DNA of 63,952 nucleotides, the filler included, from Stramenopiles sp. TOSAG23-3 (Eukaryota): the NCBI GenBank assembly GCA_900128585.1. It is 3 parts of 3 records of this genome, joined end to end, with 100 filler letters (N's around TTAATTAATTAA, not from the genome) between each part and the next. Parts side by side here need not be neighbours in the genome. Positions count along the whole stretch, not along the records: positions 22,038 to 43,967 come from LT642347.1; 2 more parts are not named here. The stretch is one strand, 5' to 3'. The first letter of the stretch is position 1; each line of letters opens with the position of its first letter. The notes under the pieces were generated by a model that saw only the letters and a list, made by a program, of their open reading frames with translations, made no database searches and was not told the origin of the DNA. This document shows, piece after piece, positions 1,654-40,956 of the stretch. Both the position numbers and the translations under genes were made by a program.

Positions 1654-1915
1654 GTTTCCACGATATATATATATATATATATGTATACTGTATAGAACGG
1701 TGGGTAAAAAAACGAGCAAGCGAGAAGTTCGGTCGTTCGTTCGTTCGGTCGATCGCCCAATACGGTACGAAACGAAACGTGCAAAAGGGAAATGTATAAA
1801 AAGGTGCCAAAGGGTTAACAAAAAATCGATTGATTTCAGTATAGTGGTACCCAACCCAATCTACAATAAAAGCAATCGTACGATCAAACATACGTTCACC
1901 AAACCCTCTTTAAAT

Positions 1916-14175: not shown

Positions 14176-14344
14176 AGTAGTGTAGCGAAAAGAAGCGTCC
14201 GGTGTGTTGCTCACTTTTTTTTATAGTTTTTCTTGTTCGGATTCGGGTTCGTTCGTTCTACTCGGACAGGTCCCGTGCGCGACTATAACCAGAAATAAAT
14301 GAATCGTGGGCGAGTGTAGCGTGTTGCTTGTCGTGTGTGGCAAA

Positions 14345-15930: not shown

Positions 15931-18777
15931 ATGGCGGCGCTGCACGAGAACTACAGCGGCGAGGCGGAGCCCCGTTATATGAAACGAAAGGTGAAGGCAG
16001 GGAAGATTGAAGCCGATTTTGAATTGAGGGCGCTGATTGTGCATTATGAGGTTGAAGCTACGGTTCTTGGGGACCGGGGTGAAGCAATGCAGGTGGAGAA
16101 GAAGGCGCTTACGAAACGTATCCGTTTGAAGACGTTGAACGAGAACACGAACGTGCCGCTTTTGGCGGAGGAAATAGTCGAGTCGTGCACACTAATTCAC
16201 GACTCCAAGCTCCCGCTGGTCGAGGAGTTGTTGTACAAACTCCAGCAGCACTCCATGTCGGAGGCGAACGGGGGGGAGCGGCGTGCCCGGAAGGAGAAGC
16301 GCCGGAAGAGCAAGAAGAGCAGCCGGGACCGCGACCGGGACCGCGACCGGGACCGCGACGGCTCGGGCGGCGGCATGGACAAGGGGCGCGGGGACGCGTC
16401 CGGCCCGCCCCTGGAGACGGCGACCCTGGACAAAATCGACGACTACATGGAGAAGTTGTACGACGACGACATGAAGGAAAAGGTCAAGGGGACGGCGATG
16501 ATCTTGGAGCTGGCGAAGCACGCGGGGAACTTGGAGGCGCTGATCCAGAACGAGTCGCTGATGGGGGCGCTCTCGCGGGTGCTGAAGGAAGACTACAAGC
16601 GGAGCATGGACCTGGTGGTGAACCTGATGTACATCTTTTTCAGTTTTTCCAACTTTTCCCAGCTCCACGGGGCCCTCCTGACCAACCGCATCGGGAACGA
16701 GACGATGCGGGTGATCGAGCTGGAGATCAAGCGTTACGCCCTTCGGATGAAGGAGATGCAGACGATGACGCGGATCGCGGCCCTCCAGGGCCGGGGCGAG
16801 GAGGTCCCGGCGGAGCTGTGGGCGGCCCTGCAGAGCGGGCGGAAGAAGTCGTCCCGGAAGCGCCGGGGCGGGTCGGAGGGAAAGAGCAGCGGGGGGGGCG
16901 AGGACTCCTCCCAGCGGGGCAAGAGCAAGGAGCGGGAGCGCCGGATCGACATCGAGAGGGAGCGCAGCAAGGTCCGCCAGTTCATTAAGAAGCAGGACAA
17001 GCTCCTGTTCGTTTGCTTCCACATCCTCATGAACATTGCGGAGGACGTCCAGATCGAGCGGAAGGTGGTGAAGCGCAAGTGCGTCGAGTTCCTCTCGGCC
17101 GTGCTGGACCGGACGAACGCGGAGCTTTTGATCCTTAGCGTCAACTTTTTGAAGAAGCTCAGCATATTCGAGGAGAACAAGAACCGAATGGTGGAGGCAG
17201 GCGTCGTCCCGAAGCTCGTCAAGTTCATCCCGTGCAGCAACAAGGCGCTCATGCAGTCCGTCTGCCGGCTGTTGCTGAACCTGTCCTTCGACGGGAACCT
17301 CCGGGACCAGATGGTGAAGAGCAGCCTGATCCCGAAGATGGTCGACCTCCTGAAGCACGCCCCCTTCCGCCAGATCTCGCTCAAGATCCTGTACCATCTG
17401 TCGATGGACGACCGGTGCAAGAGCATGTTCACGTACACGGACTCGATCCCGATCACCATGCAGCTCCTCGTCAACTTCCCGAACAGCAAGATTCCGATCG
17501 AGCTCGTCGCGCTCACGATCAACCTGAGCCACAACGCCCGGAACGCGGAGCTGCTGTGCAAGGACGGCGGCCTGAAGAAGCTGTTCCACCGCGTCCTTCG
17601 GTACCGGGACGTGCTGCTGATGAAGGTCCTCCGGAACGTCAGCCAGTACACGTACGACAAGACCTGCGACGCGGACAATGCCTCCTCGAAGGCCCGGGTC
17701 CGCCCGGGGGAGGGGAACAAGGACCGCCGGCGGAAGGACCGGGAGGGGAAGACGGGCGACGCCGGGGACCGCCGCCGGGGCAAGCCCAGCCTCTGGGCCC
17801 CGTACGTGAACGACCTCTTCAAGCTGTGCAAGCAGGCCGCGACGGAGAACGCGGACCTGCTCCTGGAGGCGCTGGGGACTATGGCCAACCTGACGGCGAA
17901 CGACCTGCCCCCGGGCGTCACGTTTGCGGACTTGATCGTCAAGTTCCAGATGGTCGAATTTTTGCAGCGCCAGCTGGTCCCGGGGATGTCCCAGGACGAC
18001 ATCGTGCTGGTGATCATCCAGCTCGTCGGGGCGTTCGCGACCGAGCACGAGGCGGCGCGCGTCCTGGTCGGGTCCCCAATCATCAAGAGCATCAACGACG
18101 TCATGCGGGCGAAGCGTGACGACGACGAGATCGCCCTGCAGACCCTCTGGGCATTCCTCCAGATCGTCTCGTACGACGACACGTACGAGTCGCTGGTCTA
18201 CGACACGAACGCGATCGACACGGTCTGCAGCTGCCTCGGGAACCGCCGGAACAACGAGGTCCGGGCGGTCGCGGACGAGATCCTGGTCATCGTCATGGAC
18301 CGCGACCGCGTGGAGGTGGAGGTGGACATGGACGATTCGGACGATGACGAATTTGGGAGCGAGCGCTCCGACTCGGAGGACGACTCGGGCGACGAGGGAA
18401 AGTCCGGGGAGCGGCGGGGGCGGCAGCCGTCCAAGAAGCGGCGGGCGGTGGTCCGGCGGCTGGGGGAGCTGGGGCGGAAGATCCGCGAGCAGCGGTACAA
18501 GATGCACAACCAGGAGTGGCTTCGGTGGGCGAACGAGAAGGACATGGAGGCGATCGAGGGGGACGAGGGCCAACGCTTCCGGATGTCCCACTCGGACGAC
18601 TCCCACGGGGGGCAGGACAGCGAGGATTTGGACGACAGCGGCCAGTGGAACGTGGGGAGCCTCGGGCGCCACGAGATGGTCCAAATGGTCGGGCTGAGCG
18701 AGGACGAGGAGGACGACTTTCTGGTGGGGGGCGGGTACGGCGCGGGCGGAAAGTTCGAGGACGCTGCGATGTACTGA
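15931..18777 (+). CDS. KIFAP3: Kinesin-associated protein 3 (heterotrimeric kinesin-2 KAP subunit, FLA3)
   Basis: RKVKAGKIE, ALIVHYEVEA, LSRVLKEDYKRS, FFSFSNFSQLH, KKQDKLL, FLKKLSIFEENK, LLLNLSFD, LYHLSMDD, LLMKVLRNVSQ, HNQEWL all match the KAP armadillo family. Confidence 0.95.
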   Translation: MAALHENYSGEAEPRYMKRKVKAGKIEADFELRALIVHYEVEATVLGDRGEAMQVEKKALTKRIRLKTLNENTNVPLLAEEIVESCTLIHDSKLPLVEELLYKLQQHSMSEANGGERRARKEKRRKSKKSSRDRDRDRDRDRDGSGGGMDKGRGDASGPPLETATLDKIDDYMEKLYDDDMKEKVKGTAMILELAKHAGNLEALIQNESLMGALSRVLKEDYKRSMDLVVNLMYIFFSFSNFSQLHGALLTNRIGNETMRVIELEIKRYALRMKEMQTMTRIAALQGRGEEVPAELWAALQSGRKKSSRKRRGGSEGKSSGGGEDSSQRGKSKERERRIDIERERSKVRQFIKKQDKLLFVCFHILMNIAEDVQIERKVVKRKCVEFLSAVLDRTNAELLILSVNFLKKLSIFEENKNRMVEAGVVPKLVKFIPCSNKALMQSVCRLLLNLSFDGNLRDQMVKSSLIPKMVDLLKHAPFRQISLKILYHLSMDDRCKSMFTYTDSIPITMQLLVNFPNSKIPIELVALTINLSHNARNAELLCKDGGLKKLFHRVLRYRDVLLMKVLRNVSQYTYDKTCDADNASSKARVRPGEGNKDRRRKDREGKTGDAGDRRRGKPSLWAPYVNDLFKLCKQAATENADLLLEALGTMANLTANDLPPGVTFADLIVKFQMVEFLQRQLVPGMSQDDIVLVIIQLVGAFATEHEAARVLVGSPIIKSINDVMRAKRDDDEIALQTLWAFLQIVSYDDTYESLVYDTNAIDTVCSCLGNRRNNEVRAVADEILVIVMDRDRVEVEVDMDDSDDDEFGSERSDSEDDSGDEGKSGERRGRQPSKKRRAVVRRLGELGRKIREQRYKMHNQEWLRWANEKDMEAIEGDEGQRFRMSHSDDSHGGQDSEDLDDSGQWNVGSLGRHEMVQMVGLSEDEEDDFLVGGGYGAGGKFEDAAMY

Positions 18778-25741: not shown

Positions 25742-26258
25742 CGGTATCGGTCGGTTGTATGTGAAAATTTTTATGCTGCTGCTGCTGTTATATTTAAATA
25801 TTATCATTATTATTATATTTTTTCATTTTTTTAGTCGTCCTGTAGTTGGGAATTGGTATTTGTTGGTTGTGTGAACTATTATTTTTGTTTCATTAGTATA
25901 ATATTATTAACATTAATACGGTGCAGCAGCAAGCACGGAAAATTATTATTTGTACCAGCAGGTACCAGGTACCAGGCACAGGTAAAAATACCCAGGTAAC
26001 AGGTACACAGGAAGAAGTTTTTAATTTTTGTGTTTTGTGTTTTTTTTGTTTTGTTTTTTGCTTGTTTGTTTGTTTGTAGCAGTAGTTGTTAAAAGTTCAA
26101 TCAATAATGACAAGAAACTGGCCTTGTAGCCGACGATGCACGCGCTGTTACCGATAATGCCCCCCCTCAACCGCATTTCATACGCAAAATATATCCGACA
26201 AATATCAAGTACAACACTTTTCAAGGCCGCTTGTTGTAGCACATTTTCTCGTTTGGCA

Positions 26259-28091
26259 ATGGCAAGCTCAGGCACGGCCAGCAACGAAGCTGTGCACACC
26301 CCCAAGTTTTATCCTCAGAAGGATACACACGGCCCTCCATTGCTCAGTTCAAACTCAATACCAACGACGGCGCAAATTAAAGATGATAGAAAACTGGCAC
26401 CACAAGCCTACATTTCTCCAAACTACTTAAAAAGGCTGCAACCATTTCGTTCTGGAAATATACCGAACTTGTCTTCTAGTCCCTTGGTGGACGTGAGAAA
26501 GAATTTTGCGCCGCCACCTCCACTGCCCAAACCGTTCCCAAGTGACCACACCGCAGCCAAAGAAAAGACGACCGGCAAAGCGATGACAGCCGAACTTAAT
26601 AAACAGAAGCCGGTTGTTCTAAAATCTGGGGCGGCGCCCCCTCCCCTCAATTTCTCAAAAACAATTCAGGAGCCCAACCAAAGAGGCGGCGGAGAAGATA
26701 AAACCAGAAAGTGGGTCCAGCTCTTCTTGAAATTTAATAAATTTGAGAGGCACGTGGCAATGGAGATGTTACGGAAATACTCCGACGAGAAGCAGAGGAG
26801 TGAAATTGCGGCTATTTTTGTGAACGATTTCAGCGAGGATGAAGGTAGTGAGAAGGACGAGGCCAAAAGTACGCCGTTACAAGTGAAAAGTGGAAGGGTT
26901 GAAGCGGAGAGGCGAGGTGAGGGGGCGAAGCAATGGGGAGTAGACGACCATCACAGTAGGTCATCTGCACAGCCGGCATACAATAATAGCGGCCAGTGGA
27001 CTGATCAGGACGAAGACGAGTGGAGCGGAATGATGGATTACGTTGATAGAGATAAATTAAAGGGGTTAAATTCCACCAAGGAATCGTCCCTGAACGAAAG
27101 TGGATTAATGAAGGTCCCGTTCCTCAACAGCGCGTACACAACGCAACTGGTGTCTCAAATGCTATATAAACCACGTAATGCTATGCACACCGTGTTGGAC
27201 AAAAACATTGGAATGCTGGAATGCACAGCGGTCTGGAATCTAGAAAAACGTCGCTTGGAATTGTATCTAGATTCAGCTCAAGGCACGCCATTGTTGTGCG
27301 GTCAACTCGTTTCTGAAGACGAGGCCAACATGTTGCGATTCGATGTATCCTTGGCGGATGACTACGGTGGGGACCGCCTGTGCATGCTTGATCAAGTTCG
27401 CCGAGTTCCTTTGGCACAGTTTGAAATAAATACCGACGGAGACTCCGCGAGCGCTTTGTACCAACGCCCCTACGTATCCAAAGGGGCAGGGGGAGGCGTC
27501 TACGCGTCCATGGAAGACACAATGGAAGAGTTTCATGGCATGAAGCGGCAGATTGGAGCGATTCAGGTAAAGTGCGAAGAGAATGCGCCACGGAAGGTTT
27601 TGCTTATGGTTCCGTCATTAGACAAAGAGACAAAAAGACCGAACAACTTTTTCACGCAATACAAGGAGGATAATATTTTGAAAATGGCTGCGTCCGGTCC
27701 GCAAGAGAGGATAGAGTACTTACTCAGCAAAGAAGCTGAATATGACGACGAATTGAACGGCTACTGTTTGGATTTCGGGGGAAGGGTCACGATGGCATCT
27801 TCGAAGAACGTCGTTCTTACTCGGCACGGGAGAAGAAAGACGCTGTATTGTTTCGGCAAAAGCGGACCAAACGAGTACGCATTATCGTTTGGAAGCCCGC
27901 TCTCTATTCTTCAGGCGTTTTGCACGGCACTATCCAGTGTTGCTGTTAGTTTGCAAATTTTTACTACCGATCGAGAGCTGAGCGAATTTGAGGATGATAG
28001 TGATGACGACGACGATAGGGATGATATGTTTTTTGAAGACGACGAAATGCTTCATGAAGACGAGTATTACTATGGCGAGGACGATGATTGA
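26259..28091 (+). CDS. Tubby C-terminal domain protein
   Basis: PRKVLLMVP, YCLDFGGRVTMASSKNV, FGKSG..YALSFGSPLSILQAFCTALSS. Start uncertain (ATG 26259, or 26136/26157). Confidence 0.85.
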   Translation: MASSGTASNEAVHTPKFYPQKDTHGPPLLSSNSIPTTAQIKDDRKLAPQAYISPNYLKRLQPFRSGNIPNLSSSPLVDVRKNFAPPPPLPKPFPSDHTAAKEKTTGKAMTAELNKQKPVVLKSGAAPPPLNFSKTIQEPNQRGGGEDKTRKWVQLFLKFNKFERHVAMEMLRKYSDEKQRSEIAAIFVNDFSEDEGSEKDEAKSTPLQVKSGRVEAERRGEGAKQWGVDDHHSRSSAQPAYNNSGQWTDQDEDEWSGMMDYVDRDKLKGLNSTKESSLNESGLMKVPFLNSAYTTQLVSQMLYKPRNAMHTVLDKNIGMLECTAVWNLEKRRLELYLDSAQGTPLLCGQLVSEDEANMLRFDVSLADDYGGDRLCMLDQVRRVPLAQFEINTDGDSASALYQRPYVSKGAGGGVYASMEDTMEEFHGMKRQIGAIQVKCEENAPRKVLLMVPSLDKETKRPNNFFTQYKEDNILKMAASGPQERIEYLLSKEAEYDDELNGYCLDFGGRVTMASSKNVVLTRHGRRKTLYCFGKSGPNEYALSFGSPLSILQAFCTALSSVAVSLQIFTTDRELSEFEDDSDDDDDRDDMFFEDDEMLHEDEYYYGEDDD

Positions 28092-29049
28092 GTATTTTGA
28101 GCAATTCGACGAATCTATTTTCTATTTGTTAAACTTGTCTCTAGACGACTAAAATAATACGGTTCACGGATTATTCTCTACCGTACTCATAATAATTTCC
28201 AGATGTACACGGGTATATTGGATATATCGATCGATTAGTAAAACCTAAAAAGAGCAAAGAAGATATAAATAAGTTCGCGTTCATCATGAAAAAAGGAAGA
28301 ATGTAAACCGAGAATTGTCTTCTAAATCTAGATTTCAGTTCGTAGTATAATATTAATACATTGTATTACCAAGGTGGTAATTTTATTAATTCGATTATTT
28401 ATTAATAACAACAGCCAATTCTGTTCGATTTTTCAAGAATTTCGTCGTAGTACATTTTTTTCATTTCTCCTATTCGTATGTTAGAATTAGGGTAAAAGAA
28501 GGAAATCGAGGAAAAAAGAGAGAAGAAAAAAAAGGAGGATTGTGGTGGGCCACATTTTTAAAGGTATTTGTTGAAATAAAATTAATATATAATTATATTT
28601 ATTTATAATAATAGTATAATCACATTATTGTCCTTAATTTACATAGTGACAACAATTATTAATTATTTTTTTTCTTCTTCTTCTTCTTCTTCTTTTTTTA
28701 TTCACTCTGGTACTTCTTTTATATTCTGATGTTGTGTCCCCAATTAAAAAAATTAGGAGAGGGGAGGAGGAATTAAAAAAAACTGATGAATATTGTATCG
28801 TACCGTAGTTAGTATATGTATTATAATTACAGTGCAGAGCAGATTTGTGATATATATTAGTAAACAATTATTCCTCGTAAAGTGTAAGTTCACATAATTT
28901 GTGCGAGAAAATAACAACTATGATTGATTGAAGATTAGTTTCACAGATTTAATTTTTCAAAGCATACATTCATTATAGTAAAGGGAGGCATTATTCAATC
29001 GTTGTTACTTTTCCAAATAAACTGTACCACACGCAACAACTAAATACCT

Positions 29050-29793
29050 ATGTCGGCACTTGCAAAGCACTTGACCGACAGTCTACAGTTGACGGTAATT
29101 GGAATTGCGGGGGGGACGGGGAGTGGCAAAACCAGCGTTTCACAGCACATCATTGATGGGATTGGGAAGTCCAAGGTTACATATTTAAGCCATGATTCCT
29201 ACTACAAGGACATTTCACACCTGTCTTTGGCAGAGCGTGCACAAAATAATTTTGACCATCCCGACTCCCTCGACACGGAGCTACTGTGCGAACACTTGAT
29301 CGCACTGAAGAACGGGCGCTCCGTGAACTGCCCCATTTACAATTTCACCACGCATAGCAGAGAAAAAAAGACCGAGCTCGTAGAGGCAAGGTCGGTTGTT
29401 ATAGTCGATGGAATACTGCTTTTTTCGGAACCAAATTTGCGGAAAATAATAGACATCAAGCTTTACGTGGACACCGAAGCGGACCTACGATTCATCCGCC
29501 GCCTGGAGCGCGACATACTTGAACGCGGTCGCACCAGGGAAAGCGTGATTAAACAGTACTTGAAGACTGTTCGCCCCATGCACGACGAGTTTGTTGAGCC
29601 TACAAAGCGCTTTGCAGATGTTATCATCCCGAACGGGGCAACAACGGGCTTGAACCAAACTGCAATGGATATAATTATATCTCGTGTCAAGCACGTGCGG
29701 GTCCGTGGTTTGAGCTTCGACTCCCCGCCGCTTTCACCTACGCGCCGGTCAGCAACTGTTCCGGCAATGGACACGATACAGTTGGACGCGTAG
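29050..29793 (+). CDS. udk: Uridine/cytidine kinase (stand-alone)
   Basis: IGIAGGTGSGKT, DSYYKD, NFDHPD, DGILLF, RRLERDILERGR, VRPMHDEFVEPTKRFADVIIP. Confidence 0.95.
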   Translation: MSALAKHLTDSLQLTVIGIAGGTGSGKTSVSQHIIDGIGKSKVTYLSHDSYYKDISHLSLAERAQNNFDHPDSLDTELLCEHLIALKNGRSVNCPIYNFTTHSREKKTELVEARSVVIVDGILLFSEPNLRKIIDIKLYVDTEADLRFIRRLERDILERGRTRESVIKQYLKTVRPMHDEFVEPTKRFADVIIPNGATTGLNQTAMDIIISRVKHVRVRGLSFDSPPLSPTRRSATVPAMDTIQLDA

Positions 29794-29860
29794 ATGGTGG
29801 CCATTTCAGTTTCTCATGTAAAATTATTTACATATTATGAGTGTATATATATACGTTTTT

Positions 29861-31849
29861 TTAGTTATTCGCCTGCAAGTAACTGCTTTTGGTTCTCGTC
29901 TTCTTCGCATTTGCATTCGCAGAGAGCTTCATGTGCTTCTTGTGCTTCGATTTTGCACTGGACCCGCTCTTGTCCGCTGCCCTGGCCGCCGTGCCATCAT
30001 GGGCGGACGAGGAAAGCATGTCATGAAGCGTGCCGCTCCAAGATGGAACGAAGCGACCTTCATCCCCTGACGGCAGTAGTTCCGTTTCGGATTTTTCCGC
30101 CGAAATGTTTCCATCTGATTGCGAGTCTTGAGCGGCCACTTTCGCGTCGGCATCCTCAGTCTCGGCAGCGCCTTCCGGTACCTCCTCAAGGTCTCGAGCG
30201 TCGATCACAGTAGCCTTCGTGGCTTTTGCCTGTGTGTTCATCACGACGTCAGCCTTTCTCCAGTCGCCCGCCACCGTCGTATTGAATATATCAACCATAT
30301 GCACGGCAAGAAAATCACAGCTCCCATCTTCGGTGTCAATGTTCAAATCGTCTGCCAAAACTTCTTCAAGAAACGGGGCAATTTCGTCGGGAAATATTTC
30401 ACCATCTTTCTTCTTGTTTACGACGCGCTCCCATCGCTCTTGAAAGTTAAACTCCAGATCCTCGTATAGTTTGTCAACTTTCTTCTGCGTGTCCCTTCCT
30501 CCAGTGTCGTGGGCCTGGGCAAACTTTATTATCGGCCACTCGTGCACGAGTTTCTTCAACGCTGCGGCGAAACGCCAAAAATTCTTTTTCGAAGAAGCTG
30601 CCTTTTCATTCAGCAAAAAACAGGCCCAAGACGACGCTTGCCCGACACCACTGTGCTGAAACGGCGGGTCCCCAACGCCCCCTATTTCAACATTGTAGCC
30701 CCAGCTTTCTGATACCTCCTTGCACCACGAATGAAACTGTGAGTGGGACCATTCCCACAAATGACCCGCAAATCGGACCTGCTCCTCGTGCATGTTGTAG
30801 ACACTGTTGAACGTTTTATTTACTGTAGAAACCACGATCTGCTTTGGCTGCAGCACTCCAAATAACCACTTCACCATCGCGTCCAATTCTTCTTTCGTGT
30901 GGGACTGGATCCATTCCGGGAGAACCACGGTGTCTTGTCCATGCTCTGTAACAACGGCCGGTACATAGTGGTTGCTCGTGATTAAATCGCCAGCATACGT
31001 CTTCACCTCCAACGCGTATTTTCTGGGGCGTAGCATGTTTGCGCTGCTCCCAAACACTCCGCCTTGAACGCGGGACACGGACTTTTGAACTTCGGATTCG
31101 GCTAGCCCAATGACGCAGAGTTTGTCTACGAGGGGGCATAAATCTCGAATGCCTTCCACCAAATACCCTTCCTCTTTCCCACCAATAATAAAGACCCGTT
31201 TGGTTCGAAACTTTCTGAGCAAAGCGCACACTTTCACTACCCGCAGCCGAAGGACGCCCTTTTCTGCGTCATGAAATGTGCTGGCCATCAGCGGGAATGA
31301 CAGCGCAGAATCATTTGCACTACCCGCACCATTCTTTCGCTTCGCTCGCTTTTCGCGCATATATTTTTGCTTCTTGGTTTCTTTCTTTTTCTTGACTTCC
31401 CACCCATCATTTTCGTCTCCTTCAGTGCCTGCAGAGGGCTCAACCTCTTCGGCTTTCTCCGCTTCGAGGTGAAGATCTTGGCTAGCAGCAACGACCTCTG
31501 TCATCGAAATAGTCGGCTTAATTTCAAACCCTTCGAACATAGCAGGTTTAGAATCGTCCCCGCCGCCCTCAGTTTTGGGCGTGCTCTTTCCACTTTCTAA
31601 CTCTTGTTTGTGACGCGCAGCCAGCGCTGCTTCTCCCGTCCGGAGGATTTCTTTAAACGTCGTAAGGGCCCTTTTCTTGTCTTTTCCCTTCAAACCCCGC
31701 GTCATTTTATTACGCTCTTTCTCCATTTGCCGTTTCAAGTCCTTTACTTCTAACTTGTGCCGCCGCTCAATTTGATGCAACGTTTCTTTGACGGGGGCGC
31801 CACCCCCCGCTTCGCCGCCTTCCAAACCGTTTTCAACAAAGGTTGCCAT
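29861..31849 (-). CDS. Fusion protein: OTUD6/Otu2-like N-terminus, degenerate HEN1 methyltransferase domain and TSR2 domain
   Basis: RRHKLEVKDL..KDKKR..RHKQELE (OTUD6 N-terminus); FGVLQPKQIVVSTVNKTFN..HLWEWSHSQFHSW..YNVEIGGVGDPP (HEN1); F..WP..GG..QKK..DEIAPFLEEVL..EDGS..GD (TSR2). Confidence 0.8.
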   Translation of the reverse strand: MATFVENGLEGGEAGGGAPVKETLHQIERRHKLEVKDLKRQMEKERNKMTRGLKGKDKKRALTTFKEILRTGEAALAARHKQELESGKSTPKTEGGGDDSKPAMFEGFEIKPTISMTEVVAASQDLHLEAEKAEEVEPSAGTEGDENDGWEVKKKKETKKQKYMREKRAKRKNGAGSANDSALSFPLMASTFHDAEKGVLRLRVVKVCALLRKFRTKRVFIIGGKEEGYLVEGIRDLCPLVDKLCVIGLAESEVQKSVSRVQGGVFGSSANMLRPRKYALEVKTYAGDLITSNHYVPAVVTEHGQDTVVLPEWIQSHTKEELDAMVKWLFGVLQPKQIVVSTVNKTFNSVYNMHEEQVRFAGHLWEWSHSQFHSWCKEVSESWGYNVEIGGVGDPPFQHSGVGQASSWACFLLNEKAASSKKNFWRFAAALKKLVHEWPIIKFAQAHDTGGRDTQKKVDKLYEDLEFNFQERWERVVNKKKDGEIFPDEIAPFLEEVLADDLNIDTEDGSCDFLAVHMVDIFNTTVAGDWRKADVVMNTQAKATKATVIDARDLEEVPEGAAETEDADAKVAAQDSQSDGNISAEKSETELLPSGDEGRFVPSWSGTLHDMLSSSAHDGTAARAADKSGSSAKSKHKKHMKLSANANAKKTRTKSSYLQANN

Positions 31850-32920
31850 AGCTCCGTAATTCTATGCAAAAAGCTATTACAACGACTGTCTGTACTTCCC
31901 ACCTCTCGTGTTTTGAAATGTTGAAAATAGTCGCCTACTTCTTAGCTTGAGATTGACTTTTCCTATGGCATCAGAATGAAATAGTTCTATCGCATAGAGT
32001 ACGGGGTATTGTTCATTGTGATCGATCAGGTCGGTCGGTCGGTTTATTATTTTTTGGTATTTTTTATAGCGCTTATGCTGCTGGCGGCGGCGGTGGTAGA
32101 ATGAAACAACAAAAAACAAAAAAAAAAGGAAGAAGACGACTTATTATCTATTAACCCTAACCCTAACCATACCTAGTATTAATAATACCTGGTAAGTAAT
32201 ACCAAGTAAAAGCAAATACCCTCGAGATAAAATAATAATTTCTTCTTCTTCTTCTTCTTTTCTTGTGGTGATGCCTGCAATTGATGGTTAGGAATAGGGT
32301 ATTTCATTTAGAATCTTCTTCTTCTTCGCGAATTATTTTTATATAATAATTAAATTATATATAGACACAATATGAAAGTATCCATTGACTGGCCATAAAA
32401 TAAGAAGATGAATAAATAGAGAGGAAGATACATTGAGAATGTCGATGCTGTGTCATGTAATCGTCTTCATAGAAAATAGCGATTTGGAGTTCTATTGTTG
32501 TTGTGTTCTGATTTTGACTCTTTCTTCTTCTTTGTTTGTTCTGCTCTGCGCTCTGCTCTCCTTTTTCTTCGCCCTTCGCATATTGTGGCTGGGTGCTACG
32601 GTAGATGCTTTATTTATTAGAGCATAGGAGGAGGAGAAGGAGGTCAAGCCCAACAACTTTAGTATAGACACTATAGTAAGTTGTTGTTTCATAATAAATA
32701 AAACAATAAAATTATTATTTTATTATTATTCGTCATTTAAGAATACAATAGAATTGCATTGCGATTGCTGTTAATAAATACTGTTGGGGAGGAAGTATCC
32801 ACACCATATGGCCTACATTAAAAGGTGAGTTTTACATGAGACGGTTCGTTTGCTTCAATATCCAAACAATCTCAAATACACGCATATATAGTTTATTGGA
32901 AAGAGAGAAAGAGAGAGAAC

Positions 32921-33961
32921 ATGCCCGGCAAGAAGAGGAAAGCAACGACGGAAGCTGCCCCAGAGGAGGAGGCGGCCACGGTCGCAGACTACGCAAATAC
33001 CCTCACAACCGCAGCACGCAACGCTCACGCTGAACTGCGGGCGTTAAAGAAGAAGAAGCAGTCAAAGGGTAAAACAGACAAGGCGGCAGCAGAGAAGAAG
33101 GAGTCTGGCGTTGTATACCTAGGCCATATTCCTCATGGTTTCTTTGAAGATCAAATGTTAGGTTACTTCTCCCAGTTTGGGGAGATCAAAAGACTTTGTT
33201 TGCACCGGAGCAAAAAGAACGGCAGGTCGAAGGGCTACGCGTTTATTGAATTTGAAAATGAAGAAGTCGCCAGTATTGTTGCACGCACAATGAACAATTA
33301 TATTCTAACGGGCCGCGTTCTAGTGTGCCACCGGGTGAAGAAGGAGAAAATCCACGCAGGCATGTTTCCAGGGACTGGACAGGTGTCACGCTTTCGGCCC
33401 ATGCCAAGGCGCTTAATAGCGAAGAATTCCCAGAATGCCCCCCGAACTCTGTCGCAGATCCAGGCGGCGAAAAAGAACAATCTGAGAAAGGAGAAGAAAA
33501 AGCGTGCAAAATTAAAAGCGTTGGGCATTGATTACGATTTTCCAGGTTTTAGCGGGGGAAATGTTGAGGTAGAAGAGACTCCCGTAGACTCTGGGAGAAA
33601 AGGAACGAAGCGAAAAGCAACCAGTAGTAAATCAAAAGAGAAGAAAAGCACCGCAAAACCGGCCAAGAAGAAAGCCACGAAGGCGAAGAAAGTGCCCAAG
33701 CAAGAGGCCGAAAAGAAAGTCACTAGAGTGAGCAAACGCCAAAAAAAAGCGGCAATCCCGGTACTTGTGGAAGAGAAGGAAGAGAAGAAACCAAAGAAAC
33801 CAAAGAAAAAAGTTGCGTCCAAGGCGGCCCCGAAGTGCAAGTACAATATGAAAGAGCTAATGAGATTTAAGAGTGCAGAATTGCAAAAGATGTGCAAAGA
33901 TGCAGGGCTAGACTCCAAGGGAATAAAAAAGGTGTTGGCGGGAAGGTTGCTAGGAAAGTAA
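32921..33961 (+). CDS. NIFK: NIFK/Nop15 nucleolar RRM protein with a C-terminal SAP-like motif
   Basis: GVVYLGHIPHGFFEDQMLGYFSQFG, RSKKNGRSKGYAFIEF..VA.TMNNYIL, KLKALGIDYDFPG. Confidence 0.93.
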   Translation: MPGKKRKATTEAAPEEEAATVADYANTLTTAARNAHAELRALKKKKQSKGKTDKAAAEKKESGVVYLGHIPHGFFEDQMLGYFSQFGEIKRLCLHRSKKNGRSKGYAFIEFENEEVASIVARTMNNYILTGRVLVCHRVKKEKIHAGMFPGTGQVSRFRPMPRRLIAKNSQNAPRTLSQIQAAKKNNLRKEKKKRAKLKALGIDYDFPGFSGGNVEVEETPVDSGRKGTKRKATSSKSKEKKSTAKPAKKKATKAKKVPKQEAEKKVTRVSKRQKKAAIPVLVEEKEEKKPKKPKKKVASKAAPKCKYNMKELMRFKSAELQKMCKDAGLDSKGIKKVLAGRLLGK

Positions 33962-34156: not shown

Positions 34157-37100
34157 CTAAATGTATGGGCATTGGGCTTCCTTTGATTTCTCTGCGCGGG
34201 CCGGAAACCGGGCTAATTTGCTGCCTAGTAAACGACAAGCACTGTGGCTGCGACGTTTCATCCTCACCCGGCGAATTTGAGATCGGTGGGTCTTGTTTCT
34301 CAAAATTATGCCCTTTGCTGCTTTCGTTTTCACATTCTTTTCTTCAAGCATTTGGAATACATTCATCAGAGACTTTTCCTTCTTCTTCATGTGCTTCTCA
34401 TGCACTTCTGCTTTGTGGCGCTTGGTAGCATTGTGAAAATGTGCATTTATATCGTTGTAGCAATGCGTGTATGCCATAAAAAAACACGATTTCTCACAGG
34501 CTTCAAGGTCCACCAAATTTCCTTTCGGGATATCTTCCAGCTGCAAAACACCCATGTTCAAGCAAATTGCGCACTTTGACGCAGCCTCAGCAGCCCTGAA
34601 CTGCTTACGATGACACAACAGGCGAATGATTCCCACTAGTTGTTTTGCAACATCCCTCCGGTAATCGGCGACTGTAACATTTAACGTACCCCCCCGCCGC
34701 GTTGGCTTGGCTGCTTTCTGGTACACGTACACGAGGTCATCTTTCGCATGTCTTCCAATGTATCCTATGTTATAAAACTTCTCAATGGAGCGGCGAATGA
34801 GGCGCACGAATTTTACCACTGGCAGCTTCAGATGCTCAATGAATTGGAGCAAATTAGGCCAGTGCTCATCTGTGACTAACACCTCAAACACAGGAGGGTG
34901 GATTATGCATCGCTGAAGTGGCATGCCCTTCAGCAGAAACGGTCTTATGCTTGCTTCGCGGTTACTTGCAGTGTAACTGGGGTGTCGAAATATTTTCAAC
35001 AACGTTCTTCTTGCTGTGATTAAATCATGGGCAGAGAACTTGGAACGCAGAGCGTCCCGGACTTGCCGATTTGGTACACACCAGAACCCCAGGATCTTTT
35101 CAGCATAGTACGGAGACAGTATTTTTTGCAGCTCCAACCACGGTCCATATTCGTTTGTTTCGACCATAGCATACATCATTTCTAGTTCAGATACCCCGGA
35201 GGGCGATATAACCATCAGGGCAAACACCTGCCGGGAGCATGGATGTTGTTTGAACATAATCTCAACAGCAGCAAGGGTATCTACCACGACAAGAGCTTCT
35301 TTTTCTTCTCTTTGCGTTGGCGACGCGGGGGGTTTCTTCGTACCCGCGTCTGGTGCGTCTTGCTCAATTTGTGAGGCCATGTCAAAGTTTTGGTGTACTA
35401 TGATATTTCGAACCAAATTCCCTACTACCCGAACCGATCCATACGAATCAGGATCAATGGTTTGTTCGACCTCGTCTGTCTCCTCGATCTTTAAACCTTG
35501 TTGCCCATCAACTTCACTGTCGGAGTCACGCGCTACTTCCGACGCGGGGGCGTCAGACCCAGTGGGCATGTCTAACTTAATGTTCCACAATTCGTGGTAG
35601 TGCCGTATCAATGTGACACGATCATCTGCCGTCAGCCGTGGAATAGCTGTTATGTTCCAGGTTTCAGAGCAAAGTTGAAAGACGTCGCTTATTTTTGCAG
35701 TAGTCATTACGACCCGGACGTTTGGAGGCAGCGTGTAATTTCTTATAAAATCTAAAAACATCTTCACGTCGTTTAATCGTCTCTTACTGTGATCGATTTT
35801 GTCAATTAACTGTTTATCTGCAAGCTCCTCGTCTAGCACATTTTCTCCATAATGACGAGAAGATGCACTAGAGGACACGCGAGATGACTCCGAGAATAAT
35901 TTTGAGCTGGCAACAGAATCCTCCTGCACGATCCCAAAATGTTGACGAAGGTTTTCTTCTTCTTGTTGCTGTAGCGTAGTCAGCAAAGAAAGGGACGAAA
36001 TTTCTTCAAGGTGGTCGATACCGTCAAGAATGAAAACGACACGACCAAATATTTGGAGCCTGCTGCTCCATTGAAATATCAACGGCAACAAGTCTTTTTT
36101 TCGTACTGGAATCTGCTCGGAAAATCTATAGAGACGTTTCAATTCCAACAGCGCACGGCGGACGCCCATGTACACCGAGCGCGTCGAAGTACTAGCAAAG
36201 CAAATTGTTATTACAGTAATACGGCCGAAACCTCGCTTCTTAAAGTGTAAAACGGAATTAAATGGGGTTTTCCTCGGAAGGATCGACTGCATCCAACCGG
36301 CAATTATAGAAGTGGCCCCTCCCCCGTGCTCTTGACTCGCAAGGACCATTGGTTTATGGTACAAAAGTCGATCTTTTGCGTTATTGAAAAACACATAGTT
36401 TGATATGCGCGCCACAACATCGGGAAATAAGTCTATGTATGTTTTTAGAGAGTTTTTCAAGTACAACGTTGTGTTCAAACGACCAAGTTTTAGCCACGAC
36501 GGTATGTCCTTTTTTGAAAATTGCTGGTTTATAATTTTTCGAAAGCATCGGGTCAGTGGCACCTTCAACGATTTTGACTGGTAGTAGTTCTTTACGAACT
36601 GAGCGTCTGTTCCAGTCACGCGCTCTTTCAGATCAAACTGGGCGTCTGCACTTGCTGGACCATCAAGAACGAGCTTTGTGCCAGCAGCGGACGTGTGCGG
36701 TGATTGGGGCTCGAAAGCTGGCTTGTAATCAATGTGCTGATAGCAGACTACAGTATTTGCAGCAATTTCATCGTGTTGAAACTGTGGAACTACAAGGCCA
36801 ACCATCAATTCGATCTCGCAAAGCGACAGGCCAGAACCGGGCTTCTTATTATCGTAGTGTTTTAGCCAAGGAAATTCTGCGATTAAACTCGGCGACAGCA
36901 TTTTTGGGATTTCGCCGTAGTTTAGCGGCAAGAAGTACAGCCCATACGGTCTGCATTTAACAATTTGCTCTATGAACGTGTCGACCATGTGCGGGCTAAT
37001 CGACTGGTTAGGTTTCAGGTTGAAACCGCTGATGAGGTGAGGGTCCACGACGGAAAACGACACCCGCCTTTCGTCGCATAAATGGACTAACGATGGCATA

Positions 37101-39715
37101 ATGGAATTGTAAAATGTCTCACGGTCCAGCTCAGTGCCTTCAGGAGGCGCTGATAAATAAAACAATATGTCCCTGCTGTCAGTTAGGTCTTGTTTGGACG
37201 GTATGACGGACACTGCATCTACAATGAAGGCTTCGCTTTTCCCTAGGATTACATCTGGGAACCTTCCGCTGATGACGCGGACCTGATACTTCCCTGGAAA
37301 CTTTGGATACCCATGAAGAAATTTGTACTTTCCCTTCACCCCTTCCATAGTTATTTTTGCAATCGGTTTTTTATGGTCAAAGTGCCCAAACAAATCGTTC
37401 ACGGGCGCATCGATTGCATAAATTCCTGCCCAATCAGGAGGGTGATCATCATCCAGCAAATCTAACGAGATATCCCCTAACTGGTATTCAAACTCGAAAG
37501 GAATTTCTAAATGTTCGTCAATCGTGCACCGGGACGCACTTTTGACTCGAACCGCTGGATGGGTAGCGTGGAACCGTTTTTTTTCCCCTATGCTCACAGC
37601 ACTGCCTTTTAGCAAGTACCTCACTTCATATGTGCCTAACCCTGATGTTACGTCCTGAAAAGTTAATACTCCAGCATTTCCTTCGGGAACGTAGGCCTTT
37701 CCTACCATCTTCGGTTTCTCTTTGAACTCAATATTGTTTAACGTTGCATCACCAGGACCCAAGAAAAAAATACCAATGCAGTCAAGCACATCGTGCGGTT
37801 TTCCTGCCTGGTCCTTATGAGTGTAGACATACTCAATCGGCACGGCGTTACCAATTATTATGTGCTGCGAACAAGTTAGTTTGATGTCTATATGAAAATC
37901 ACCCCGCTTCGGGTACGAAGATATTTTATCGAGGGTAGTTCGAAAGACTCGCATTTGCCCTGGTGTCACCCCATTATTCTCCATATCTTGCAGCACAACT
38001 TTTGATGCCAACTTATAGTTGCCGTGTTCGAGGGCGCCCTTGACGACCGCGCGCGGGCTTTTCGTTTCATCCTCGTTTCCAACTTTATCAGTTTCCAGCA
38101 AGTGATCCGCACGAACTACTTTGGGGGAAACGATGCGTTTTCTCGACGGCTTATCCCCCCCGGACGAACCCAAAAATGCTTCCTCCTTCTTCATTGCAGA
38201 CGCAAGGGCGCCTGCGGGAATAAAATGTACGGCAAATTGGAGCTGAGAATCGTCAGGGGTCCAAATTTGTAGTAAAGGCAAAGACTCCGACTGCGCCGTG
38301 AGAGTGACCAACCATTCATAGTGTCCTAATTTGCTGTGTTCGGTCTTCGTTACATTTACGTCCAAAAGAGCATCAATGACCTCTCCAAAGGATGATATCG
38401 CCTCTTTCATTTTTTCCGCAGAGAGGTTCCACGCCAAGTATTGGGTCTTATATGCACCCATGTAGATGCTGAAATAGGATGCTCGTTCAAACTTTCTTGG
38501 AGTTCGCAACTGAATGGACTGCTGGCATACTACCCCAACTACCCATTCGGGGTTTTCCAGAATCTCCTGGCCGCCCGACATACCCCCTTCGATTGCTGCT
38601 ACTTCCTCTGACACATTCGTATTTGCCACTGGAGGCAATGATGCAAGAGCTGAGCCATCTTTTGCAATTGGAGAATTTACGGGAGAGGGTGGGGGACCCT
38701 CGCTTTCGCCAGCTTGTTCCTTTGTTGCTCTGGGAAAATTGAATGGGTCGTACCCAAGGTGTTGGCTGTGATACAGGCGTTGAAAATGCAAATCGGGAGT
38801 TTTTGACAATTCTATGTACTCGGCACCTTTTCTAATAAGCTTGTAGCAGTGCAGCAATTCATTTTTTGCTTCAACCGTGCCGGGGTTATCAATTCCACAA
38901 GCAGTATACCGAAGCACAAACACTTTTTGCAAAATCATTTCAGCGTCACGATGGTCACTGAAACCTACATTTTTCTTCCTATTTTTTGATCTAATTTTTC
39001 TGTAGATTCTAAACTTTTTTGAGTCTTTTCTTTCCTTGTCTTCGTTCTCCTCAATGTCATCAAAGGTAGACTCTTTTTGCACAGGCCGATCCTCTAGGAT
39101 ATTGCTTAATATCTTTCCCAGATTCAGACTAGATTTTCTCCTCTTTAAGCGTCTGTCTGTAAAACTGTCAGACCGCATCCGATCTCTCCGTAAGCGCGGC
39201 GCGTACTTTTCAGCTTGGAAATGGTCCGTGCTAGCAGTAGTTTGGAGAGCTTCTGGCAGTTCTGCCGATAACGGTTTCAAAATATCTTTCAATTTTTTGA
39301 GGTCTCTCTGGACAGACTCTCTTTTCCTAATCAGTTCCGGTATGCTCTTGGATTTAACAGAGTCTATAAATTCAGGGTTATTAAGAACACTTTTTGGTAT
39401 AAGTGATTTGATAACTTTCTTCGCCGGCTTCTTTCTTTTCGCAAGTTTCTTCTGGTACCGTTGTTCTTCAAAATCCCCGACTATCCAAGGTTTCCAGGAG
39501 CCATGCAATTTTTTATCTTCTGTGTCATTCTTCAAAGCCTCTGTTCCCAATACTTCAGGAATATCTAAGACCTTCCGCTTATGCCGCTTCTTCTTCGAAA
39601 TAATGTTTTTCACAATCGCTCTGGTCGTTTGGCGAGGGACCACGTTTGCACGCCACTGGGCAACGTTAGGCGTCACCTCTGAGATCAGTGCTTTCCTGTC
39701 TTTGTATGACGCCAT
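34157..39715 (-). CDS. Large protein with two Ig/SKICH-like beta modules, a DUF4062-like domain and a degenerate NACHT NTPase (NPHP3/TEP1/TTC41-like core)
   Basis: ILFYLSA..DRE..IMPSL..LCDERRVSFSVVD and IVKCRPY (DUF4062-like), GLSLCEIE, PMVLASQEHGGGATS (Walker A-like), VVFILDGIDHL (Walker B), LPPNVRVVMTT, GVSELEM. First in-frame ATG is 39715; an upstream exon is possible. Confidence 0.7.
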   Translation of the reverse strand: MASYKDRKALISEVTPNVAQWRANVVPRQTTRAIVKNIISKKKRHKRKVLDIPEVLGTEALKNDTEDKKLHGSWKPWIVGDFEEQRYQKKLAKRKKPAKKVIKSLIPKSVLNNPEFIDSVKSKSIPELIRKRESVQRDLKKLKDILKPLSAELPEALQTTASTDHFQAEKYAPRLRRDRMRSDSFTDRRLKRRKSSLNLGKILSNILEDRPVQKESTFDDIEENEDKERKDSKKFRIYRKIRSKNRKKNVGFSDHRDAEMILQKVFVLRYTACGIDNPGTVEAKNELLHCYKLIRKGAEYIELSKTPDLHFQRLYHSQHLGYDPFNFPRATKEQAGESEGPPPSPVNSPIAKDGSALASLPPVANTNVSEEVAAIEGGMSGGQEILENPEWVVGVVCQQSIQLRTPRKFERASYFSIYMGAYKTQYLAWNLSAEKMKEAISSFGEVIDALLDVNVTKTEHSKLGHYEWLVTLTAQSESLPLLQIWTPDDSQLQFAVHFIPAGALASAMKKEEAFLGSSGGDKPSRKRIVSPKVVRADHLLETDKVGNEDETKSPRAVVKGALEHGNYKLASKVVLQDMENNGVTPGQMRVFRTTLDKISSYPKRGDFHIDIKLTCSQHIIIGNAVPIEYVYTHKDQAGKPHDVLDCIGIFFLGPGDATLNNIEFKEKPKMVGKAYVPEGNAGVLTFQDVTSGLGTYEVRYLLKGSAVSIGEKKRFHATHPAVRVKSASRCTIDEHLEIPFEFEYQLGDISLDLLDDDHPPDWAGIYAIDAPVNDLFGHFDHKKPIAKITMEGVKGKYKFLHGYPKFPGKYQVRVISGRFPDVILGKSEAFIVDAVSVIPSKQDLTDSRDILFYLSAPPEGTELDRETFYNSIMPSLVHLCDERRVSFSVVDPHLISGFNLKPNQSISPHMVDTFIEQIVKCRPYGLYFLPLNYGEIPKMLSPSLIAEFPWLKHYDNKKPGSGLSLCEIELMVGLVVPQFQHDEIAANTVVCYQHIDYKPAFEPQSPHTSAAGTKLVLDGPASADAQFDLKERVTGTDAQFVKNYYQSKSLKVPLTRCFRKIINQQFSKKDIPSWLKLGRLNTTLYLKNSLKTYIDLFPDVVARISNYVFFNNAKDRLLYHKPMVLASQEHGGGATSIIAGWMQSILPRKTPFNSVLHFKKRGFGRITVITICFASTSTRSVYMGVRRALLELKRLYRFSEQIPVRKKDLLPLIFQWSSRLQIFGRVVFILDGIDHLEEISSLSLLTTLQQQEEENLRQHFGIVQEDSVASSKLFSESSRVSSSASSRHYGENVLDEELADKQLIDKIDHSKRRLNDVKMFLDFIRNYTLPPNVRVVMTTAKISDVFQLCSETWNITAIPRLTADDRVTLIRHYHELWNIKLDMPTGSDAPASEVARDSDSEVDGQQGLKIEETDEVEQTIDPDSYGSVRVVGNLVRNIIVHQNFDMASQIEQDAPDAGTKKPPASPTQREEKEALVVVDTLAAVEIMFKQHPCSRQVFALMVISPSGVSELEMMYAMVETNEYGPWLELQKILSPYYAEKILGFWCVPNRQVRDALRSKFSAHDLITARRTLLKIFRHPSYTASNREASIRPFLLKGMPLQRCIIHPPVFEVLVTDEHWPNLLQFIEHLKLPVVKFVRLIRRSIEKFYNIGYIGRHAKDDLVYVYQKAAKPTRRGGTLNVTVADYRRDVAKQLVGIIRLLCHRKQFRAAEAASKCAICLNMGVLQLEDIPKGNLVDLEACEKSCFFMAYTHCYNDINAHFHNATKRHKAEVHEKHMKKKEKSLMNVFQMLEEKNVKTKAAKGIILRNKTHRSQIRRVRMKRRSHSACRLLGSKLARFPARAEKSKEAQCPYI

Positions 39716-40956
39716 AAGTGCACTGAACAGGGCAGGAAGCACGGCACGATTCAACTACCAATCTTCGTGCGGGCGGTCAATCGTTTTTGATTTTGGTGGT
39801 GTCATCAGAATAACGCCTTTCGGTTCTGACTACCCAACCAGTTCATTGCTCCTGTTTGAATTCTGTACACGCTGCGAACAAATAAAAAGAAATTATTATT
39901 ATTTTTTATTTTTTATAATAATAAAATACTACATTCATTTAATAATACACAGTAATAATAGGTCTAGTATAAATAATAATAAAAAAAGTAGAAGAAGAGA
40001 AGATGTGATTGGAAAGTCTCCTGGGTAATAATAATGCATCTTATTGTACATTAAAACTGCATGGTATGTGGTAATTATTTCGATGGATGAGTTCGAGTAT
40101 ACTGTTAAATTAATTTTCTATATATCTGAATAGCAGGAAGGCGGTTAATTCGCATACACTCTGCAATAATAATACAATAAAAACAAATTGTTGAATTCAA
40201 CCAACAACTCAAACTCAAACTCAAACTGGACTACTAACCGCACCGGCATTTATTTTCAATTTGTTGTTAGACTCCTCGTATACGTAGTCGTCAATTGTCT
40301 CCACACTCTGTTCTGTCTCCTCGTAGATGAAGCCCATTGTAATTGGAATCGTAATTTAAATAGCATTATTAGTCTATGATAGTCTAGTCTAGAAGAAGAT
40401 AGAAAATGTGTGACATCACTTTCACTGTATAAAATGTACACGCGTATATAATGTAACAGTTTCTATTTTAATATTTATATAAAAGAAGAAAAAAAAATAT
40501 AATAAAAAACAATTTTAATGCAGCCTAATAATAAGCTAAGCAATGAGACTTCCGTGCAGACGATGCTATTGTCCACTGTGTAGAACGTTGGCGTTTTACA
40601 TTTTTTATTTTTTCTTCCGTCCCTTTTCCTCTTTCTTCTGTTGTTGTTTGATGCTGGTACTGGTAGGCAAGTAGGCAATAATAACAGGACACTGCAACAA
40701 CGACAATCACGTCAGGTCACATCATTATTTCCTGGTATTAATATATTAATAAATACTTCTCACTACCGTAAAGATGACAACTTCTCGCACATATATCGCT
40801 ACACTATTATAATTCGTCTTCTTTTTGCAATACTCCCTCCTCAAGGGTCGTTCCTAGACAGCATTTTACCACGAGGAAATTTGGGGTTTCAGGTAGAAAG
40901 GCGGTTAGGAACCTGGTGGCTTACGCAGATATTTTCGAAGGCAAAGACTTGAGAAT

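Follow-up and report, generated by a model that had tools for sequence, protein, structure and literature searches.

Fusion of a HEN1-like domain to a TSR2 domain, a possible tethered eS26 chaperone, in an uncultured marine flagellate

What might a protein do that carries, in a single chain, a domain resembling the RNA 3'-end methyltransferase HEN1 and a domain resembling TSR2, the chaperone of the ribosomal protein eS26? This question is raised by an open reading frame (ORF) at positions 29861..31849 (minus strand) of a 63,952-nucleotide stretch of DNA from Stramenopiles sp. TOSAG23-3 (GenBank assembly GCA_900128585.1), in which three parts of the assembly are joined with filler between them; this whole stretch is referred to below as the window. 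An original prediction, made from the sequence alone, had read the ORF as a three-part fusion of an Otu2/OTUD6-type N-terminus, a HEN1-like domain and TSR2, and had proposed a role in the maturation of the 40S ribosomal subunit. Our analysis shows that the HEN1-like and TSR2 domains are genuinely fused and that this fusion is conserved and occurs in RNA libraries; it has apparently not been described before. The functional reading we put forward, to which we give about an even chance of being right, is that the protein is an enlarged version of TSR2, the eS26 chaperone, peculiar to this lineage, in which the HEN1-like part serves an uncultured marine flagellate as a non-catalytic binding tether.

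The coding sequence consists of 662 codons and a stop codon (29861-29863), without an intron, and its translation bears out the single unbroken ORF that had been predicted, with every peptide string quoted in support of the prediction found at its expected position. The three modules originally proposed correspond to amino acids (aa) 22-86, 184-413 and 422-533, and these ranges agree with elements of a full-length AlphaFold2 (AF2) model (4-sequence alignment, mean predicted local distance difference test (pLDDT) score of 61). In this model, helices at 24-50 and 56-87 are followed by a low-confidence segment (aa 89-191), a Rossmann-type succession of strands and helices (~184-413), six helices within aa 415-538, a low-confidence acidic stretch, a strand (601-608) and a helix (630-659). 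Compared with its orthologues from metagenomic loci L002, L003 and L004, the protein is 51-57% identical in the N-terminal hairpin, 41-48% in the HEN1-like domain, 54-65% in the TSR2 domain and 43-49% in the C-terminal tail, with 12-28% identity in the linkers. The protein consists of four conserved modules with two variable linkers between them. Two of the three modules originally proposed, HEN1-like and TSR2, stand; the prediction had missed both the basic C-terminal fourth module and the residue losses in the HEN1-like domain that are described below.

The module predicted as TSR2/WGG at ~30585-30250 is a bona fide TSR2 domain (aa 416-540; 30230..30604, minus strand). It matches Pfam family PF10273 over aa 427-512 (E = 3.2e-11; profile positions 1-76 of 80) with 43.9 bits against a gathering cut-off of 26.8, and relatives from protein databases likewise score above the cut-off (P0006, 45 bits; P0010, 55.5 bits; P0016, 32 bits). 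A profile built from six rows (A4) matches the nuclear magnetic resonance structure of yeast Tsr2 (6g03/6g04) at E = 1.6e-5. The WGG domain is named for a conserved Trp and Gly-Gly signature, and the residues that align to the yeast W and GG, namely W438, G450 and G451, are invariant in all four orthologues and in 6/6 rows of A4; across the region, 53 of 125 positions are invariant among orthologues. The six modelled helices (415-436, 439-447, 454-477, 487-500, 510-526 and 531-538; pLDDT mostly 81-91) correspond to the six-helix fold of Tsr2-N when set against the published helix list (PMC6131548), a comparison of lists rather than of superposed structures.

Yeast Tsr2 is reported to bind eS26 through an acidic surface and a tail, to free it from importins and to escort it to the pre-ribosome, and its D64-W65-I66 (DWI) patch is described as required for eS26 binding (PMC6131548). 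The segments of eS26 to which Tsr2 binds are specific to eukaryotes and missing from the archaeal protein. Reading the alignment by eye, we found yeast D64 to correspond to the invariant D459, D95/E96 to the acidic residues D/E500 and D501, and I66 to Leu or Ile, while the counterpart of E61 is variable. The protein thus resembles TSR2 in its above-cut-off Pfam score, its six helices, the W...GG signature, the acidic counterparts of D64, D95 and E96, and an acidic stretch that follows the domain. It differs in having ~415 extra N-terminal residues (hairpin, linker and HEN1-like domain) and a conserved basic C-terminal tail, in the Lys or Arg that stands in place of yeast W65, and in size, with 662 aa as against a yeast numbering that reaches residue 205 in the passages of PMC6131548 on which we draw.

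The HEN1/HENMT1 module that had been placed at ~31300-30610 (aa 184-413) was confirmed both by sequence matches and by a Foldseek structure search, and is delimited here as a HEN1-derived domain of Rossmann methyltransferase fold (aa 184-415; 30605..31300, minus strand). In phmmer searches of the PDB, human HENMT1 (5wy0/4xcx) matched aa 270-415 at E ~1e-12, four bacterial Hen1 methyltransferase domains matched at E values from 3e-11 to 1e-10, and Arabidopsis HEN1 at 1e-3. The NCBIfam model bacter_Hen1 (TIGR04074) matched aa 302-406 (E = 5e-20; profile positions 353-455 of 462), and its score of 71.4 bits misses the whole-protein cut-off of 340, a shortfall to be expected because the model was built for a bacterial two-domain protein. 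When the AF2 model was used as a Foldseek query, HEN1 chains filled ranks 1-10, headed by 5wy0 (E = 3.7e-11), with a target-normalised template-modelling (TM) score of 0.80 to this human HENMT1 structure, and non-HEN1 methyltransferases began at E = 1.6e-5. Since all ten top fold matches are HEN1 proteins and other families appear only from that value onwards, the homology is specific to HEN1 and goes beyond that shared by generic Rossmann methyltransferases. None of the Pfam methyltransferase models matched at E ≤ 10. HEN1 signatures that the domain retains are the R..H.FEW insertion, the motif (T)xN..FN, the Arg of motif X, the first metal-binding Glu and GVGDPP; unlike HEN1 proteins, the window protein is without double-stranded RNA-binding, La or Pnkp-associated parts.

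A scan of metagenome contigs yielded seven loci. Full-length unbroken ORFs were present in L002 (666 aa; contig guanine-cytosine (GC) content 0.45), L003 (656 aa; 0.42), L004 (699 aa; 0.31) and L005 (698 aa; 0.30), while L001, identical to the window, as well as L006 and L007 were partial. In a collection of 1.84 billion representative proteins, a profile of the four orthologues found 1569 hits at E ≤ 1e-3, of which 338 were at E ≤ 1e-10 and six at E ≤ 1e-30. Among the best 150 of these 1569 hits, one was full length (P0002), fifteen others were judged by reading to be relatives or fragments (P0006-P0012, P0016-P0018, P0022, P0030, P0050, P0103 and P0149), and the remainder matched the HEN1-like part alone. 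A search of 5.8 billion proteins for entries of similar length returned four, including the window's own; none was named and all carried PF10273 as their only Pfam family. Among the fragments, P0012 and P0017 run from the hairpin through the linker into the HEN1-like domain, of which they hold the first half, with P0155 extending P0017 into the second half, and P0022 (27% identity) aligns to aa 306-457 in one segment, across the junction between the HEN1-like and TSR2 domains (E = 9e-22), and overlaps the N-terminus of P0010, which consists of TSR2 and tail, with 94% identity over 71 aa. The same architecture is thus seen in four more complete ORFs on metagenomic DNA, from at least four other organisms, as well as in fragments down to 27% identity, and its presence in fragments from distant lineages indicates that it is older than the clade of the window.

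Evidence at the RNA level points the same way. A search of public sequencing runs located the stretch, whole or in part, in 19 of 24 listed rows from nine studies, all marine or seawater, and nine rows are recorded as RNA. Contigs of four RNA-library runs (X1, X2, X4 and X5) were aligned to positions 28900-33100. One contig of 2065 nucleotides (X1, record 2) reproduces 29839-31902 with no differing letter, gap or joint, and so contains the entire ORF with 22 and 53 flanking bases. In X2, which derives from the sample of X1, the ORF region is covered in two pieces (29841-31142 and 31154-31900). In a second study, a contig at 30910-31630 (X4, record 9) spans the boundaries between hairpin and linker and between linker and HEN1-like domain, and in a third, an oligo-dT library, a contig at 30458-30867 (X5, record 16) spans the boundary between the HEN1-like and TSR2 domains. 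RNA-library contigs from three studies therefore bridge the internal boundaries, as the original prediction had proposed to check, with the proviso that contigs are silent on strand, ends and expression level and that RNA libraries may contain DNA. The upstream stretch 32143-32706 had no cover in the four runs and is not used as evidence; as an X4 contig extends to 32049, the 5' end of the transcript is undefined. Single-letter differences between the window and the RNA contigs were A>C at 30581 (X5 only) and G>A at 32993 (X1, X2 and X5), both probably strain variation.

That assembly or annotation had joined separate genes is, given these data, hardly credible. The only records resembling separate genes are the fragments P0010, P0012, P0016 and P0017, and the candidate explanation of P0012/P0017 and P0010/P0016 as separate split genes was rejected, because P0155 and P0022 reveal these apparent split forms as truncated records. 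The same ORF is moreover present in the window and in DNA contigs L002-L005, and a single RNA-library contig spans all of it; because the DNA contigs are independent, a chimera is excluded for practical purposes. A full-text literature search, covering papers other than those available by subscription only, returned no publication on HEN1 together with TSR2 in one protein. We therefore regard the architecture as undescribed, in agreement, within the scope of that search, with the original prediction, whose author knew of no described protein of this kind. Multi-domain forms of TSR2 do occur elsewhere: in P0103, a database protein of 729 aa, a pair of WGG domains is accompanied by a UVR motif and the beginning of a RIO kinase domain. 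Here the fusion partner is a different one and a HEN1-like part is absent; P0103 is a single record that ends within the RIO domain.

If the domain derives from HEN1, does it still methylate? HEN1 is reported to hold the 2' and 3' hydroxyls of the 3'-terminal nucleotide of RNA through a metal with four residue ligands, E796, E799, H800 and H860 in the plant enzyme and E132, E135, H136 and H181 in the human one (PMC10781085). We counted the key columns in the four orthologues of alignment A1 and in 21 canonical HEN1-type hits spanning the domain, taking residue roles from passages of PMC1397878 and PMC10781085. A first group of residues is invariant in both sets (21/21 and 4/4): the motif X Arg, the first metal Glu (plant E796; here E312), the Asn of motif VI, the Arg and His of the HEN1-specific insertion (plant R858 and H860; here R359 and H363) and a Gly-x-Gly near the end of the domain. 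A second group is replaced. The motif I Asp, present in 21/21 canonical sequences, is Ile in 4/4 orthologues, and the third residue of the Gly loop, which is Ala, Ser, Gly or Cys in 20/21 canonical sequences, is K, K, N and R, with a one-residue insertion after it, so that the canonical D-x-G-C followed by a small residue contrasts with I-x-G-x followed by K, N or R plus the insertion. The motif II Asp that binds the ribose of S-adenosylmethionine (SAM; plant D745, human D78) is Asp in 21/21 canonical sequences and G, G, D and D here. The second metal Glu (E799; 21/21) is Q, Q, H and H, and the metal His (H800; 21/21) is S, N, T and T according to the script or S, C, T and T by eye. Finally, the Pro of the T-P-N motif (21/21) is Val in 4/4 rows of the alignment: motif VI, canonically T-P-N-x-E-(F/Y)-N, reads T-V-N-K-x-F-N, with the Asn and the F-N kept in all four; L003 has T-P-N.

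In the window protein itself, the Asp of motif I, the small residue of the loop, the SAM-ribose Asp and two of the four metal ligands are all missing, so that it has neither the complete four-ligand metal site nor the SAM motifs I (V/L-x-D-x-G-C-G) and II (G-V-D-I) of HEN1. A cruder count over 137 hits outside the family list gave E..EH in 130 and TPN in 134; of the seven without E..EH, by our reading, P0022, P0030 and P0149 are distant relatives, two are fragments that start at or after the motif and two are variants. Despite its degenerate sites, the domain is under purifying selection. At 41-48% identity between lineages it retains 64 invariant positions of 232, and in the pair L002/L006 (93% protein identity) its 12 non-synonymous differences against 25 synonymous ones give a ratio of non-synonymous to synonymous polymorphism (pN/pS) of 0.14, compared with 0.09 for the TSR2 domain, values that come from this one pair, L004/L005 being too alike (1.5 synonymous differences overall). 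Residues invariant in all 21 canonical sequences are replaced, so any role of the domain would be one in binding rather than methylation; judged by these motifs, it is probably a pseudo-methyltransferase kept for a binding role.

The N-terminal module is a conserved basic helical hairpin (aa 22-88; 31586..31786, minus strand; net charge +9), recognised from the AF2 model and from conservation among orthologues. In a separate model of 95 aa built from six sequences, its helices span 24-50 and 56-88 with a pLDDT of 80-94, and 29 of 67 positions are invariant among the four orthologues. This is the module that had been likened to the N-terminus of OTUD6B/Otu2, a resemblance that found no support in sequence, profile, ESM Atlas or fold searches. 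A phmmer search of the PDB with aa 1-272 gave no Otu2, the best matches being a Cas12e and a pilin (E 0.35-0.95); hmmsearch of the PDB with 4-sequence and 6-sequence N-terminal profiles returned unrelated proteins only (E 0.07-9) and again no Otu2; and the P0017 and P0012 N-termini, used as phmmer queries, gave one unrelated match and zero matches, respectively, with no Otu2 at E ≤ 10. In a word-indexed search of 5.8 billion proteins, aa 18-180 matched among shorter proteins only a fragment of the window's own protein, and among longer proteins the 6-sequence profile A3 gave seven matches at E ≤ 10, all of them family members without an OTU domain. Two look-ups in the ESM Atlas retrieved no Otu2, the top score of 0.88 going to unnamed clusters, with no usable named match. 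With the hairpin model as query, Foldseek gave 65 matches at E ≤ 10, not one of which reached E ≤ 0.001; the best 50 of the 65 included no Otu2 and consisted of APP E2 domains, parts of RNA polymerases and similar structures. These negatives are weak ones, given short, helical and compositionally biased segments for which HMMER filters lose faint matches, and distant homology is possible.

OTUD6-family N-termini are also Lys/Arg-rich helical segments, which offers a lead rather than a test. The absence of an OTU catalytic domain, which the original prediction had noted, holds, with WGG the sole Pfam family of the protein at E ≤ 10. Otu2 is reported to bind 40S subunits and late pre-40S particles through an N-terminal alpha1-alpha2 hairpin (residues 14-69; PMC10175282), and the analogy that had been drawn is therefore reasonable as a matter of shape: both proteins have a basic two-helix N-terminal hairpin of similar length (14-69 in Otu2, aa 24-88 here). 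They differ in that the window protein is without an OTU domain and that no sequence or fold match was detected, a comparison made through the published description of the hairpin and database searches rather than by direct pairwise or profile-profile alignment. Because the searches gave no Otu2/OTUD6 match, the proposed docking on 40S in the manner of Otu2 is left to a generic basic alpha-hairpin.

The hairpin is followed by a variable linker (aa 89-183; 31301..31585, minus strand), predicted to be disordered (pLDDT <50 over aa 89-191), with 12-23% identity to orthologues and two invariant positions of 95. It contains a Lys/Arg-rich patch (aa 150-176; 31322-31402, minus strand; net charge +10) that includes the KKQKYMREK peptide, and W150, in an acidic context ahead of the Lys and Arg residues, is invariant. 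A similar pattern of acidic residues and Trp, then basic residues, occurs in the distant fragments P0012 and P0017. This element could act as a nuclear localisation signal or represent some short linear motif. The TSR2 domain, in turn, is followed by a variable acidic stretch (aa 541-598; 30056..30229, minus strand; net charge -11), which by position and charge appears comparable to the acidic tail of yeast Tsr2. The conserved C-terminal module (aa 599-662; 29864..30055, minus strand) comprises a short strand and then a basic tail (net charge +9); W604, H609 and D610 are among its 17 invariant positions of 64, AF2 confidence over it is low, and the distant relatives P0010 and P0016 terminate in the same tail.

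Taken together, these features suggest how the enlarged TSR2 might work. The TSR2 domain and the acidic stretch would hold free eS26, by analogy with the yeast and human chaperones. The HEN1-like domain, no longer methylating, would bind a ligand, most plausibly the ribose at an RNA 3' terminus. The substrate-pocket residues specific to HEN1 are kept, namely the Arg of motif X, the first metal-binding Glu, the TPN Asn and the F/Y-N pair, both Arg and His of the R..H.FEW motif, and GVGDPP. The two basic modules, hairpin and tail, would add a general affinity for rRNA, and the basic patch at aa 150-176 could help to tether the chaperone to pre-40S RNA. In this way the chaperone would be held at the pre-40S particle, the site of eS26 deposition. 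There is precedent for a non-catalytic role of methyltransferases in 40S maturation in Dim1, Emg1 and Bud23, whose presence, rather than catalysis, is reported to be required for pre-rRNA processing (PMC5699541); these differ from the present protein in being active enzymes of other methyltransferase families that are not fused to a ribosomal-protein chaperone.

Several observations weigh against a non-catalytic tether built on TSR2. In the DWI patch, the counterpart of yeast W65 is Lys or Arg here (alignment read by eye). The full-length AF2 model is of only moderate quality. The loss of activity is read from motifs; a metal could still be held by the Gln or His that occupies the place of the second metal Glu, and the SAM-ribose Asp is present in two of the four close orthologues and in P0012 and P0017, so that some members might bind SAM. 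The strong purifying selection fits a divergent but active enzyme just as well.

One alternative is such an enzyme, a 3'-end RNA 2'-O-methyltransferase acting on small RNA or on an rRNA end and localised or regulated by TSR2. Gln and His are both able to act as metal ligands, the fold and many HEN1 signatures are kept, and the SAM-ribose Asp persists in proteins of the L003/L004 type; set against this, the motif I Asp and the metal His are lost in 4/4 orthologues, the SAM loop carries Lys, Asn or Arg, the window protein has lost the SAM-ribose Asp as well, and no Pfam methyltransferase model recognises the domain at E ≤ 10; we consider retained catalysis unlikely. Pseudoenzymes are often reused as scaffolds, and the domain might alternatively be a protein-binding or regulatory module, offering a second client surface or a lid for TSR2, with no recognition of RNA ends. 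The half-lost ribose-holding metal site would fit this, and a methyltransferase, Rkm1, is reported to help guard the ribosomal protein uL14 (PMC11248248). The residues kept, however, are grouped around the substrate pocket of HEN1 and not on a new surface, and the flanking modules are strongly basic, as for RNA binding; we consider this option improbable.

What, then, would a tethered chaperone recognise? According to PMC8112863, eS26 contacts the 3' end of 18S rRNA and, together with RIO1, displaces DIM2/PNO1 and so allows cleavage by NOB1, while the timing and mode of its joining to pre-40S are described there as debated. A HEN1-like pocket that reads the mature, NOB1-made 18S 3' end, coupling the detection of cleavage to the deposition of eS26, is compatible with all our observations, but the half-lost metal site that would hold the ribose argues against it, and we see only a small chance that it is correct. 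The model originally proposed went further and combined Otu2-type docking, HEN1-like reading of the 18S 3'-OH and hand-over of eS26 by TSR2. It draws strength from the ribose-surrounding residues kept in 4/4 orthologues (first metal Glu, Arg and His of R..H.FEW), from the reported position of eS26 at the 18S 3' end and its part, with RIO1, in triggering NOB1 cleavage (PMC8112863), from the 40S-binding hairpin of Otu2 (14-69; PMC10175282) and the similar length of the one modelled here at aa 24-88, and from P0103, an example of TSR2 fused to a domain from the family of RIO kinases, to which the eS26 partner RIO1 belongs. Against it, hairpin searches by both sequence and fold return no Otu2 or OTU protein and an alpha-hairpin is generic in shape; of the four metal ligands for the 2' and 3' hydroxyls, two are replaced, and nothing links the domain to 18S rRNA specifically. 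In its complete form the model is unlikely. The tethered, non-catalytic form of TSR2 remains the reading we favour.

The gene lies in a very compact genome. Convergent with it is a uridine kinase gene (29050-29793, plus strand; PRK family, E = 4e-43), the two stop codons being 67 bases apart, and the stretch comprising both genes appears to be intron-free; the convergent downstream uridine kinase gene is also kept in L001, L002 and L006. At 154-1854 (minus strand) the window contains a homologue of NOB1 (PIN_6, 96.8 bits; NOB1 Zn-ribbon, 93.7 bits), the endonuclease that makes the 18S 3' end. Many genes and 28 kilobases (kb) separate it from the TSR2 fusion, and the presence of both in one window is most likely a coincidence. 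Long ORFs at 5647-10761 (plus strand, 1704 aa) and 34157-39754 (minus strand, 1865 aa) gave no Pfam match at E ≤ 1e-5, the former lying in the most GC-rich part of the window (0.65-0.69 vs 0.34-0.50 elsewhere), and an Rfam scan of the window returned zero matches. Flagellate-type genes at 11815-14214 (minus), 15931-18777 (plus), 26136-28091 (plus) and 44088-45035 (plus) encode a kinase dependent on cyclic GMP/cyclic AMP (cGMP/cAMP) with three cyclic nucleotide (cNMP)-binding domains, the kinesin-associated protein KAP, a Tubby-domain protein and a polycystin-type channel, a gene content that indicates a flagellated eukaryote.

Because the HEN1-derived part matches no Pfam model at E ≤ 10, domain-based annotation would display these proteins as plain TSR2 and overlook their architecture. 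So far the fusion is no more than a domain-fusion clue, and the mechanism outlined above is a hypothesis. Should the extra domains be generic tethers only, they would amount to a modest, lineage-specific elaboration of a known chaperone. Even so, the joining of TSR2 to a domain descended from the only methyltransferase family that holds on to the 3'-terminal hydroxyls of RNA is a hint of the 'Rosetta stone' kind at an RNA-end-guided delivery of eS26, and the loss of catalysis, if true, would provide a clear example of a HEN1-family pseudoenzyme. If, further, the domain does read the 18S end, a checkpoint on the last step of 40S maturation would be built into a single chaperone in this lineage, where yeast and human use separate factors, namely RIO1, eS26/TSR2, PNO1 and NOB1.

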